Assembly (NCBI RefSeq): GCF_003428155.1
Contig: NZ_QLIR01000019.1
Location: 1-31,241 of the forward strand
DNA from: Fastidiosibacter lacustris
GTDB taxonomy: Bacteria > Pseudomonadota > Gammaproteobacteria > Francisellales > Francisellaceae
Direction: 5' to 3'
DNA length: 31,241 bases
Part shown: in pieces, positions 15,947 to 29,597 of the stretch
Numbering within the stretch: the first letter of the stretch is position 1
Layout of the letters: every line of letters starts with the position of its first letter
Position numbers and translations under genes: made by a program
Notes under the pieces: generated by a model
The model's database searches: none
What the model saw: only the letters and a program-made list of their open reading frames with translations
Told to the model about the DNA's origin: nothing

Positions 15947-18900
15947 TCATTTACGATTGACCAAATGAGAGAAATCAATAACTCTAAATTTCCCTTCATT
16001 ATCAATAATAACGTTCCCCTGATGAAAATCAGGAAGATAAAAACTCCGATCCTGGTTGTAATTTTTTTTGAAGTCTTGATAATCTTTTAATAACCGGTTG
16101 TATTTATCCTGTCCAGCTTCAAGTAACTGCAATTTTTTCTTCACCGTTTGACCTTCAAAATAAGGCATAATTAACGCTTTATCTTGTTTAACATATTTTG
16201 CTGTTGCTAATTCAGGCTCTCTTTTACTGTAGAAACGATTAAAATTATCTGCTTCCTCCTGCAAAGACTTTACACCCTTATTTTTATGTTTAAATTTAAT
16301 GGCAACTTTTTCTTCATTTTTTAACGCTAAAAATACCCTACCTTCTTCACCTTTACCAATGATTTTGTCAAGTCTATACCCCTCTATGGTTCGATTTTGT
16401 ATCCAATCTTTTTTAATCTGTTTATTGCTAACAGCTTTAAAAAATGTCTGGGTATGGGCACCTTTTGGTGCATACCTTGCAACATAATAGAATCTAACAA
16501 TGGTAGCCCCCAATGCTACGAACCCCAAACCCATTGCTACATTTATTAAGCCAGCAAGCGTAAACTGCTGCCAATTATTTGCTACTTCACCCCAGCCAAA
16601 AACAACACCTGTTAAAACAACATTCGTTATGACTTCAGCTACAAAACCAATTAGCACAGGTAAGTACAGTCCAACCCCAGGAATAAAGCTTACAACAAGA
16701 CTTAACAAAAAAGCACCAACCCCAATCAATATTCCACCCTTATAGTTTTTGGCAAACACGTCCATAGCACTCATGATTTGTTTTTGATCCGCTTCTGTTG
16801 CGTGTCCTGTAGGATCAAAGAAATTTACAGGATTATTACTTGCATAGCTATAACCATTAATTCCACCGATACCAAAGGGTGAAGCACCATCATGCTTCAT
16901 AAATATCCTTAACTCAGAATTATACGCTCGATAACCATCACCTAAAAATTGCCATCCTGTAGCTTGATCTTGTGCTGTCATACGATAACTGAGATTATTT
17001 TTTTGTACACTGAGCGCAAACTTTTCTGCCTGATTCAAGTCACTCATGTAACCATAGGGAGTATAAACATAGTTACCTTCTATCTTATTTGCAACAACAT
17101 TACCTGTTACATTAAAACCATCATTAATTTGTGCTTGATATTCGCCATGATAAATACTTCCTCCACCGACATAATAACGCGCATCAGACTCAACTTTTTG
17201 CTCTATCAAACTATCTAAATAATAATTAACTTGACTGCTATTTTTCCCTGTTTTACTGTCTTTTAACTCCACCATCACTTGACGATCATTGGTATCATAG
17301 GTGTACCCAATTTCTTTATCCTGCATATTTAAGCGAATTAAATTTTGTGCAGCATCATACGTAAATTGATGAGTTACTAATTCGCTAGGAGTATTCTTTT
17401 CCGCCATCTGTACAATATTTCCATTCTCATCATAACTCAAAACAATACTGTTATCTTTTGTTTCAATTTTACTAACTTGAGTTGGGTCTTTATGATCATA
17501 AGAATAATGCATTACAGAAATAGCACCATCTTTTGTCACGCTCTGGACTTGTTTTAACTGATTTAATGCGTCATTGTAAAGATAATATTCTTCCTTTAAT
17601 ACCTTTCCATCAGGAGTAATTGGACATTCAAATCCTTTACAAATAAATGACTGTAGCTGCCCTAATGCTGTATAACTATATCTTTCTATACTTTCTCGCA
17701 AATTTGATTCTGCATTGTCTTCGGTTTGTATAATCTTTTCTGACTTCTGACCTAATTTATTATAACTATAATTATACGCCCTCATCATCGTTCCATTTAA
17801 ATAATTCTCTACTTTGGATAATCGCCCTAACACATCATAGCGATAAGTTTGTCCTTTGATATTATTTTGCCATAGTTCGTTTACTGTTAAATTAGGATTA
17901 TAGTTCACACCTAAACTTACGGGAGAAGCTCCTTGATACTCTGCTTTTTCTAACATCCCTAAATAGTTGCTTTGTGATTTTTGTGTTAACACAACCTTTC
18001 CATCTGCCTGGTAGCTTTTTTCTACCAATGTACCATATGAATTATAGCGCAAATCTAAACGTCTTTGGCTACCATCAGGATACAGCATATCCAACTGAGT
18101 TAAGCTCAAGGTAACAGGGTCATAATGATATTCTGTTTTGCTCACAAGCTTACCTGACGCTTCTTTTTTCTCTAAAACATGTACATTCCCATTTTGATCA
18201 TATGTCCAATTTATTTCAAATTCCTTGTCTCCCAACGTATTATAAAAAAGAGCAGTCTTAGGACTCATCCATATTTCATCATATATGGTTACAACTTTAT
18301 TCCCCTTTGCATCTTGAAATTCTATTGGTAAACCAGAATTAACGTCATATTTAATTTTAATATTTTCTTTATCATCATTTAATAATGTCGTTGACGATAA
18401 TAAATACCCTAAACTGCTAAAGCTTTGCGTACCTACTTTGATCACTTTGTTGTTTATTTTGTCGATAAGTTCTGTTTTAATGACATTGCCATAATCGTCA
18501 TACTGATACTTTAGCTCACTTAATCTATGCCAAACCTTTCCCACTTTATAGCTTGTTGTCTTACCAATCAATACTCCAATTTGTTCTTTATCATACTCAT
18601 AGGTCTCCATTAAGCCCTCTACCATATTTTCGCTTTGCATGGGAATTCCTTCCTTCATTTGCGTTTTAATAAACGACATCGCCATACAATTTTGATTGGG
18701 AGAACTACAGGTTTTCTTTATCGAATCAGCTAAAGTAGTTAAGGCATACCTATCAAGCCATCTGCCTTTCTTAGCCTCTGCTACTAAAGCTTGAATCTGC
18801 TCTTTTACTGCTTGATCTTTACTATACAAAGCCATACGACCACCTGTTTCGTCCGTATACCGAAAATCAGGCTGCATAATGATGCCATAATGATATTGAT

Positions 18901-29597: not shown

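Follow-up and report, generated by a model that had tools for sequence, protein, structure and literature searches.

RHS polymorphic toxins with predicted Sec signals and a conserved hydrophobic module behind the Rhs core in Fastidiosibacter lacustris, a candidate host-directed family

The mosquito protein SGS1, whose structure has been solved, combines an RHS shell and an autocleavage site with hydrophobic helices of the multipass type, behind which another C-terminal domain follows (PMC9935623; PDB 8FJP). The SGS proteins are thought to derive from RHS toxins of endosymbionts, and the absence of immunity genes is a hallmark of host-directed endosymbiont toxins (PMC3482391). In Rhs effectors of type VI secretion systems (T6SS), the cavity of the shell measures ~32,000 cubic angstrom and holds about 16 kDa (PMC10684867). 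Here, the contig NZ_QLIR01000019.1 of Fastidiosibacter lacustris (assembly GCF_003428155.1), which was analysed at its full length of 31,241 bp and is called the window below, was found to carry three co-oriented minus-strand open reading frames (ORFs): two giant RHS genes, RHS-A and RHS-B, and between them a gene for a secreted-type protein, M. The identity of RHS-A and RHS-B as RHS polymorphic toxins is secure. A first-pass annotation of the same DNA had proposed a "different architecture" for this cluster, which was overstated because RHS toxins with a signal peptide, dependent on the type II secretion system (T2SS) or Sec, are already a class (PMC3482391, Table 1). We read the two giants, tentatively and at a little less than an even chance, as host-directed, Sec-dependent RHS polymorphic toxins of a lineage-specific family.

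The cluster covered 13.6 kb, with every frame intact in F. lacustris (Table 1). The gaps were 19 nt between RHS-A and M and 30 nt between M and RHS-B, and the motifs AGGAGG, GGAG and AGGAG, read from the sequence, lay 6-9 nt 5' of the three ATGs, which confirmed the strand, the spacing and the separate GGAG-type ribosome-binding sites given in the first-pass annotation. No terminator-like site was found inside the cluster on either strand by a simple scan. The three genes may form one operon, for which the spacing is the basis, because promoter-like sites were not commoner in the cluster than in shuffled sequence.

Table 1. Positions of the three genes, their parts and the upstream flanking elements in the window
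Feature	Position	Strand	Remark
RHS-A	23718..29597	-	1959 aa: predicted signal peptide, shell of RHS/YD repeats, Rhs core, hydrophobic module, tail
RHS-A ribosome-binding site AGGAGG	29607..29612	-	direct sequence reading
RHS-A predicted Sec signal peptide, aa 1-26	29520..29597	-	ends ...LEPAYG/Q (slash, predicted cleavage); n-, h- and c-regions by eye
RHS-A Rhs-associated core, aa 1541-1633	24699..24977	-	TIGR03696, E 3.8e-14, 53 bits vs 32.5 cut-off
RHS-A hydrophobic module, aa 1648-1744	24366..24656	-	Kyte-Doolittle 19-residue maximum 2.42
RHS-A variable C-terminal domain, aa 1745-1959	23721..24365	-	unrelated to RHS-B tail
M	21710..23698	-	662 aa, secreted-type ORF between the giants
RHS-B	15947..21679	-	1910 aa, RHS-A paralog, identical layout
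RHS-B Rhs-associated core, aa 1539-1626	16802..17065	-	TIGR03696, E 4.3e-15, 56 bits vs 32.5 cut-off
RHS-B hydrophobic module, aa 1645-1734	16478..16747	-	Kyte-Doolittle 19-residue maximum 2.39
RHS-B truncated protein-kinase-like domain, aa 1768-1910	15950..16378	-	
Transposase ORF (DDE/integrase type by reading)	30303..31241	+	six-frame translation; context, outside operon
Helix-turn-helix fragment (36 aa) of a second transposase	29972-30082	-	

Both giants matched RHS_repeat PF05593 (E 4e-9 and 4.5e-10), YD_repeat_2x TIGR01643 and the Rhs-associated core TIGR03696. The aspartyl-protease motifs in the core read R...HDSWSP...DPTGH in RHS-A and R...HDGASP...DPTGH in RHS-B, and these motifs and the TIGR03696 matches confirmed in both proteins the canonical core end with two Asp motifs that had been recognised by eye. 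Each giant contained 17-19 YD dipeptides and beta-hairpin repeats all along its length, and the "dozens of YD repeats" reported at first came down to about 10 loosely canonical motifs per protein. The collinear paralogy of RHS-A and RHS-B held, with an identity of 43% overall and 33% to 61% by 100-aa block, which is below the half to two-thirds estimated before, and the longest exact DNA run shared by the two genes was 16 nt near the core end, close to the previous figure of ~15 nt. RHS-A and RHS-B were each other's closest relatives (43%), as were two RHS proteins of Fangia (41%). Because the paralogs within a genome are each other's closest relatives, the RHS duplications appear to have arisen, or to have been homogenised, separately inside each lineage. 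A Pfam match of RHS-A to Me-amine-dh_H was rejected as a repeat artefact, since the NCBIfam equivalog scored 21 bits against a cut-off of 454 bits.

The N-terminal part of the giants resembled the shell as well. Residues 1-700 gave no match to PAAR, SpvB, TcdB_mid or VgrG even at E<=10, and this hidden Markov model (HMM) search left the first-pass annotation standing in that no recognised adaptor was matched in the N-terminal ~500 aa. In the searches with a HMMER profile built from residues 1-1100 of RHS-A and RHS-B, which was run against 1.84 billion representatives, generic RHS proteins aligned at profile positions ~200-365, and a profile search of the PDB showed the same pattern. Because generic RHS proteins align there, the N-terminal region is itself YD-repeat shell and not a separate adaptor. 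The AlphaFold2 (AF2) model of RHS-A residues 27-1150, calculated from a 13-sequence alignment, had a mean predicted local distance difference test (pLDDT) value of 53.9, with confident beta-hairpin arrays at ~136-326 and 636-826. When the PDB was searched with this model for similar folds, the top matches, with E 1e-20 to 1e-10, were exclusively RHS shells, namely those of T6SS Rhs, teneurins, Tc BC and SGS1; their template modelling scores (TM-scores) were low owing to the poor global model. A family-specific insertion of ~160 aa was noted in the shell at RHS-A aa ~850-1010 (~26568-27050) and at the equivalent place in RHS-B, and is lacking in P0004 and P0005, two distant relatives; of the four conserved Cys pairs, two lie within it, together with a pair of predicted helices at low AF2 confidence, and it might be a surface or plug domain.

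Signal-like N-termini were also read by eye on RHS-B (...IEPSYG/K) and M (aa 1-22, ...TFVYA/G), and those of the two giants have small residues at -3 and -1. All family members whose N-terminus is intact carried a signal of the Sec type, with conserved n- and h-regions and a c-region that closes with (V/I/L)YA/ or something similar. The Sec-type signal thus appears to be a conserved trait of the family and not a start-codon artefact, in line with the cleavable-looking signal peptides first noted on both giants. Some unrelated generic RHS proteins that were retrieved likewise carry signal peptides, so that RHS proteins with a Sec signal are, as such, nothing new. Four Cys pairs are conserved between RHS-A and RHS-B, a pattern that would fit folding in an oxidising compartment.

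The similarity between RHS-A and RHS-B persisted for ~130 residues beyond DPTGH, at 55% and then 36% identity. By hydropathy, this region contained about three transmembrane-like, Gly/Ala-rich helices directly after the aspartyl-protease site, and behind the last helix came a flank rich in K/R, which had 6 basic residues in RHS-A, 4 in RHS-B and no acidic residue in either. The first-pass annotation, which dealt with the C-termini as a whole, had overlooked this conserved hydrophobic module between DPTGH and the unrelated tails. The module was present in 12 of the 13 relatives with intact tails, where it started 22-28 residues past DP(T/S)GH, and the hydropathy maxima of the family modules were 2.2-2.4, compared with 1.0-1.6 for generic RHS tails. 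P0004 and P0005, which have no signal peptide, carry a similar module.

This arrangement also fits proteins that stay in the producing cell. A cleavable signal, helices with maxima of 2.2-2.4 and a K/R-rich flank make up a textbook Sec-inserted protein of N-out, C-in topology, so that RHS-A and RHS-B could be teneurin-like proteins anchored in the inner membrane by stop-transfer helices, with a periplasmic shell and a tail in the producer cytoplasm, and could act as a sensor or adhesin with a signalling domain. Kinase and phosphatase tails would suit signalling, no immunity gene would be needed, and teneurin-like structures were among the profile and fold matches. We nevertheless regard anchoring, the chief alternative, as unlikely. 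The intact aspartyl-protease motifs would cut the shell off its anchor, the tails are polymorphic between the paralogs and over the family, where they comprise a PTPase of a Pfam "polymorphic toxin system" type and a toxin domain resembling ART, and one relative, P0014, is without the hydrophobic module. Moreover, the module is carried by P0004 and P0005, which have no signal peptide and in which Sec stop-transfer cannot account for it, and SGS1 and Tse5 keep such helices inside the shell.

Behind the module, the two giants no longer resembled each other: their last ~200 aa were only 16-26% identical, and the description of the extreme C-termini as unrelated was correct. The RHS-B tail showed the motifs of a protein kinase, with the G-loop IGKGEEG at 1774-1780, VAIK at 1792-1795, DFHQGN at 1884-1889 and DFS at 1902-1904. 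It scored 31.2 bits with DUF5898 (cut-off 28.9), matched ABC1 and APH weakly, and reached E 7.6e-5 and 22.7 bits with Pfam Pkinase, below the gathering score of 31.7, while the alignments with kinases in the PDB were weak and collinear over subdomains I-VII. RHS-B ended 6 residues after DFS and did not have a complete C-lobe. Across the family, the tails were kinase-like, of the DSP-PTPase type (PF22785), similar to ADP-ribosyltransferases (ART) of the Scabin kind with STS and QxE motifs, or of low complexity, and the ART/Scabin-like tail was that of P0014, the member without the hydrophobic module. The variable domain past the module was 160-215 aa long, and the whole post-cleavage fragment comprised 280-330 residues. 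With a shell of ~1600 residues and a tail of 32-36 kDa, the proportions would be nearer to those of Tc toxins than to those of T6SS Rhs proteins, and ~36 kDa would suit a shell of Tc size better than the T6SS Rhs cavity.

Two related loci gave side observations on the tails. In L005, the RHS gene ended in a Pro/Ala/Gln-rich linker, and an ORF of 140 aa for a DSP-PTPase (PF22785) followed 45 nt on (6284-6752); because the contig had a coverage of 1.97x and the RHS gene was also split near its start, this DSP-PTPase is probably the true C-terminal domain of the RHS protein, split off by a sequencing error. In L011 (5728-8341), the P0014 gene was directly followed by a resolvase gene and a Tn3-family transposase gene (DUF4158 and DDE_Tnp_Tn3), which suggests that this toxin gene is mobile.

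No small immunity-like ORF was found behind either giant in the window: M follows RHS-A, and a convergent terC-family gene follows RHS-B, the flanking genes of the window being housekeeping genes (uvrC, obg, dnaX, rnd, pheA, the terC-family gene and others). PAAR, VgrG, SpvB, TcdB_mid and TcA had no match in the three proteins or elsewhere in the window, and apart from the RHS genes the window contained no ORF >700 aa that could be a TcA-sized injector. No vgrG, hcp or eag gene was present in the window or the related loci, and no small immunity-like ORF, vgrG or TcA gene in L004, L005, L006, L007, L009 and L010. The absence of a T6SS, Tc or immunity partner noted at first was thereby borne out in the window and in five other family loci. 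A host-directed function is favoured here because the tail families are typical of effectors against eukaryotes, because immunity genes are absent, as is the hallmark of host-aimed endosymbiont toxins (PMC3482391), and because the lineage is protist-associated.

Most characterised Rhs proteins are antibacterial, and the closest solved relatives of the giants by profile were T6SS Rhs effectors and Tse5. RHS-A and RHS-B could accordingly be antibacterial polymorphic toxins in which the hydrophobic helices form a Tse5-like pore or entry domain, delivery takes place by contact, vesicles or lysis, and proteins of the M type serve as periplasmic immunity proteins or helpers; the Gly/Ala-rich hydrophobic tails resemble the pore-forming C-terminal fragment of Tse5 (PMC10684867), and M is periplasmic or secreted and encoded directly after RHS-A. 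This alternative appeared improbable, since no family member is followed by a small immunity ORF and RHS-B has only the convergent terC-family gene behind it. The neighbours of the M type are 660-1000 aa long and in most cases are encoded upstream of the RHS gene, a size and a place atypical for immunity genes, and signal peptides would exclude loading into a T6SS from the cytoplasm. The tail repertoire of kinase, DSP-PTPase and ART and the protist-associated producer lineage also speak against bacterial targets.

The protein M contained 14 Cys in 662 aa (2.1%), so that of the "Cys-rich secreted protein" described first the signal-like N-terminus stood and the Cys content proved only modest. 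M, which is on record as a hypothetical protein of F. lacustris, was retrieved alone by a word-index search of 5.8 billion clusters, and it gave nothing credible in sequence searches of the PDB, no Pfam match and no internal repeats by self-BLAST; its AF2 model from the single sequence had a pLDDT of 30.7. The possibility that M is an outer-membrane barrel, raised by its C-terminal Trp, was ruled out by the 14 Cys and by homologs without an aromatic C-terminus. Residues 166-471 of M were homologous to the product of the gene directly upstream of the RHS gene in L005 (BLASTP E 1e-17; phmmer 2e-19), and BLASTP, phmmer and hhalign found nothing significant between M and the 671-aa neighbour in L002, the 851- and 871-aa neighbours in Fangia, the 1003-aa neighbour in L007 or the 828-aa neighbour in L010.

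Secreted neighbours were found in five further loci, one of them the M homolog, whose gene ends 9 nt before the RHS start in L005. In the Fangia locus L004, a secreted Sortilin/BNR-propeller protein of 851 aa was encoded between two RHS genes, and L009, a Fangia-like contig of 418 kb, carried in 1-25736 a secreted BNR/DUF6242 protein, RHS, a secreted BNR/Sortilin protein, RHS and RHS. In L010, the gene that stops 55 nt before the RHS gene encodes a product of 828 aa that has a signal peptide and contains 23 Cys, and a signal-bearing protein of ~1000 aa lay 3' of the RHS gene in L007, the place taken by convergent housekeeping genes in L006. These neighbours fell into at least three groups without detectable mutual homology, and the recurrent feature is a large secreted neighbour rather than one protein family. 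The giant-middle-giant order thus recurred in Fangia, with a BNR-propeller protein and not an M homolog in the middle, and of the "dedicated secreted partner" of the first-pass annotation the recurring large secreted neighbour remained, the role of a partner being unsupported beyond gene order. The simplest reading of M and the other neighbours is as putative trans-acting factors for binding or release. At the end of the L009 cluster, a signal-bearing protein of 290 aa with weak matches to PorP/SprF and the autotransporter beta-domain (E about 0.004) may be an outer-membrane barrel.

The profile search returned 48 matches with E<1e-3, of which 16 had E<1e-30. The strong matches were full-length relatives from Fangia hongkongensis, Facilibium subflavum, metagenome-assembled genomes (MAGs) of Francisellaceae, an unclassified Pseudomonadota MAG and metagenomes, and the weak matches were generic RHS proteins. 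A word-index search with RHS-A found the protein itself, its paralog and two weak matches, and a scan of the genome collection with a 4-sequence alignment found only Fangia. No match was obtained in a metagenome scan with the family N-terminus, and none in a scan of viral contigs or by tblastn against plasmids; within the viral and plasmid collections searched, the locus is not phage- or plasmid-borne. These results point to a rare family that appears restricted to Fastidiosibacteraceae and Francisellaceae, and the literature searched does not mention RHS proteins in this lineage, apart from a pseudogene listing (PMC9837558). The N-termini of the distant relatives P0004 (in L003) and P0005 (in L002), with VDPRTGQ...GxGW, were SpvB-like by eye only, and both proteins had a long Gly/Ala-rich hydrophobic region right after DPTGH; the surroundings of P0005 comprised several genes for 600-800 aa without a Pfam match, adjoining an autotransporter.

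The region was 99.78% identical to that of GCA_024208055.1/JAMBMW01, which is 'Ca. Nebulobacter yamunensis', an obligate endosymbiont of the ciliate Euplotes (PMC9837558). In the endosymbiont, RHS-A had a 2-bp deletion at 24520-24521 inside the hydrophobic module (L001 5696), so that it was called as 1742 + 210 aa, and carried G1610R in a conserved glycine of the core, while M and RHS-B were intact. These changes of RHS-A could be the early decay of one toxin or an assembly error. The non-synonymous and synonymous changes between the two strains numbered 9:5 in RHS-A, 7:3 in RHS-B and 0:2 in M, and a Pseudofinder table of endosymbiont pseudogenes names wapA_3 and rhsC (Prokka names), which were not mapped to this locus (PMC9837558).

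Taken with the insertion sequence (IS) or transposase sequences that adjoin the operon, the Tn3 resolvase and transposase next to a relative and the truncated kinase domain of RHS-B, the frameshift, the ratios of 9:5 and 7:3 and the two pseudogene names could mean that the cluster consists of the decaying remains of RHS genes that were acquired horizontally, and has no function today. This was judged very improbable, because three intact frames over 13.6 kb with good ribosome-binding sites are kept in F. lacustris, conservation across genera, at 27-43% identity, extends to the catalytic motifs of the core, the Cys pairs and the signal peptides, and the comparison of the strains showed 0 non-synonymous against 2 synonymous changes in M.

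On the host-directed reading that we tentatively prefer, each precursor would be exported by Sec over the inner membrane with removal of its signal peptide, and the shell of ~1600 residues would fold outside the cytoplasm, where the conserved disulfides would stabilise it. The Rhs aspartyl protease would then cleave after DPTGH, and the freed fragment of 280-330 residues, consisting of the hydrophobic helices and the enzyme tail, would remain shielded in the shell as in SGS1 and Tse5. This shielding is proposed because both of these proteins hold hydrophobic helices in RHS shells (PMC9935623; PMC10684867). At the membrane of a eukaryote, namely a protist, the module may insert in such a way that its N-terminus stays outside and its C-terminus comes to lie inside, by which the tail would reach the cytosolic face, and the adjacent secreted protein, M in F. 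lacustris and the BNR-propeller protein in Fangia, would most likely give target binding or help in release in trans. Signal cleavage, autocleavage, encapsulation, the route over the outer membrane, the target organism, the topology of the module and the role of M are all inferred.

Several observations weigh against this sequence of events. The RHS-A tail had no Pfam, NCBIfam or PDB match and no recognisable fold, and the kinase-like domain of RHS-B may be inactive, because it stops after the DFG equivalent and scores below the Pkinase cut-off. The quality of the AF2 models was low, with a pLDDT of 30.7 for M and of 53.9 for RHS-A 27-1150. The neighbours were mostly non-homologous across lineages, so that a shared partner function is unproven, and RHS-A seems not to be required in the endosymbiont because of its frameshift and G1610R. 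Helices as hydrophobic as those of the module usually act as Sec stop-transfer segments, which favours anchored proteins. Finally, the rows of the secretion-system table published with the endosymbiont genome are only type I secretion system, Sec-SRP, type IV pili and type IV secretion systems of types T, I and F (PMC9837558 Table S1). The lack of T2SS and T6SS rows, in a table read without its colour coding, is suggestive and no proof. No candidate route over the outer membrane emerged for a folded shell of ~210 kDa, and the T2SS export of the first-pass annotation is unsupported.

In its strongest form, the host-directed reading holds that a Sec-exported cocoon with its own translocation module puts a kinase, phosphatase or ART effector into the host cytosol without TcA, a T6SS or a type VII secretion system, with a secreted receptor-binding partner assisting. 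Such an autonomous route is a doubtful proposition at present; if true, it would amount to a binary toxin with an RHS shell as its basis, and bacteria would have their own counterpart of mosquito SGS1. The family bears on the questions of how RHS cargo is released without a T6SS spike or TcA and what role shielded transmembrane helices of the SGS1 type play. A module that acts as a translocation device would represent a new autonomous delivery principle and a possible scaffold for protein delivery, and would provide the first candidate host-interaction effectors for Fastidiosibacteraceae, in which "virtually nothing is known" of the molecular interactions between symbiont and ciliate (PMC9837558). 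If the proteins were anchored instead, they would be bacterial teneurin-like receptors of reversed topology, which is also unusual. The family offers a tractable bacterial model, as F. lacustris grows on BCYE (buffered charcoal yeast extract) medium and has a near-identical obligate Euplotes endosymbiont.

The remaining elements of the window lie outside the cluster. The transposase ORF, ~700 nt upstream of RHS-A, comprised at least 313 codons in an open frame of 317, read MIMMDSKAQ...DDATSELYAQFF...RAGIFGG and ran off the contig end. As the window is the whole contig, the assembly probably broke at an IS copy. A degraded partner gene upstream of RHS-A was ruled out, since tblastn of all partner proteins against 29598-31241 gave 0 matches. 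A DUF3301 gene at 13752-14301 encoded 148 aa in the sister assembly and was represented in the window by an ORF of 84 aa (13752-14006) that overlapped a gene of the glutathione S-transferase-like type, with single-nucleotide differences at 14029, 14031 and 14276; the discrepancy in size is probably a difference in start codon or annotation.

Comparison with the known systems showed that SGS1 shares with RHS-A and RHS-B the large Tc-like RHS/YD shell, the aspartyl-protease site, the predicted multipass helices and an extra domain, as well as the lack of an immunity gene and a eukaryotic target context. Receptor-type beta-propellers go with both: SGS1 carries them in cis, and in Fangia a BNR-propeller protein is encoded by a gene of its own. 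RHS-A and RHS-B differ from SGS1 in their predicted bacterial Sec signal, in the number of helices, which is about 3 against about 6, and in tails that resemble enzymes. SGS1 has inserted propeller, carbohydrate-binding module and lectin domains, and neither giant showed a propeller domain. Outside the generic shell, no relationship to SGS1 was detected in the sequence: SGS1 was absent from the profile search at E<1, and Foldseek ranked it behind T6SS Rhs, teneurin and Tc structures (E 2.9e-10, low TM-score).

WapA of Bacillus and Streptococcus and the T2SS/Sec-dependent class have the N-terminal signal peptide, which is a predicted one in the giants, the RHS shell, the DPxG core and the polymorphic C-terminus in common with them. 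WapA is however a Gram-positive antibacterial protein with a downstream immunity gene, whereas RHS-A and RHS-B have an outer membrane to cross, no WapI-like gene, a hydrophobic pre-toxin module and a large secreted neighbour. In Tse5, which was among the best profile and fold matches, the Rhs shell likewise encloses a hydrophobic, membrane-inserting C-terminal fragment freed by an aspartyl protease (PMC10684867). Tse5 differs in its delivery by PAAR/VgrG and the T6SS, the lack of a signal peptide, a tail of ~16 kDa that makes up the entire toxin, and the presence of an immunity protein, and RHS-A and RHS-B have a further variable domain of 160-215 aa behind the hydrophobic module. The other T6SS Rhs effectors are cytoplasmic precursors without a signal peptide, with a PAAR, prePAAR or VgrG-binding region and with vgrG/eagR neighbours, and RHS-A and RHS-B showed none of these features.

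The Tc cocoons (TcdB2-TccC3 and YenB-YenC) are similar in their shell of ~1600 aa, tail of ~30-36 kDa, ART-type tails in relatives and eukaryotic target. They differ in that RHS-A and RHS-B are single polypeptides with a predicted signal peptide, have no SpvB, TcdB_mid or FG-GAP match and no TcA in the window. A hydrophobic tail would also be unusual for passage through a TcA channel. Teneurins, which were among the fold and profile matches, are membrane proteins whose YD shell lies outside the cytoplasm; they are of type II, with an N-terminal anchor, no second catalytic Asp and no tail release, whereas the anchor-like module of RHS-A and RHS-B is C-terminal to an intact protease site.

Signal-peptide RHS toxins (PMC3482391), the domain order of SGS1 and the hydrophobic Rhs tails of Tse5 are therefore already known. 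What is new is a rare and coherent family that joins the shell, cleavage site, hydrophobic helices and polymorphic tails with a predicted bacterial Sec signal, the conserved pre-toxin membrane module between the cleavage site and the polymorphic enzyme tails, and the recurrent pairing with large secreted proteins.

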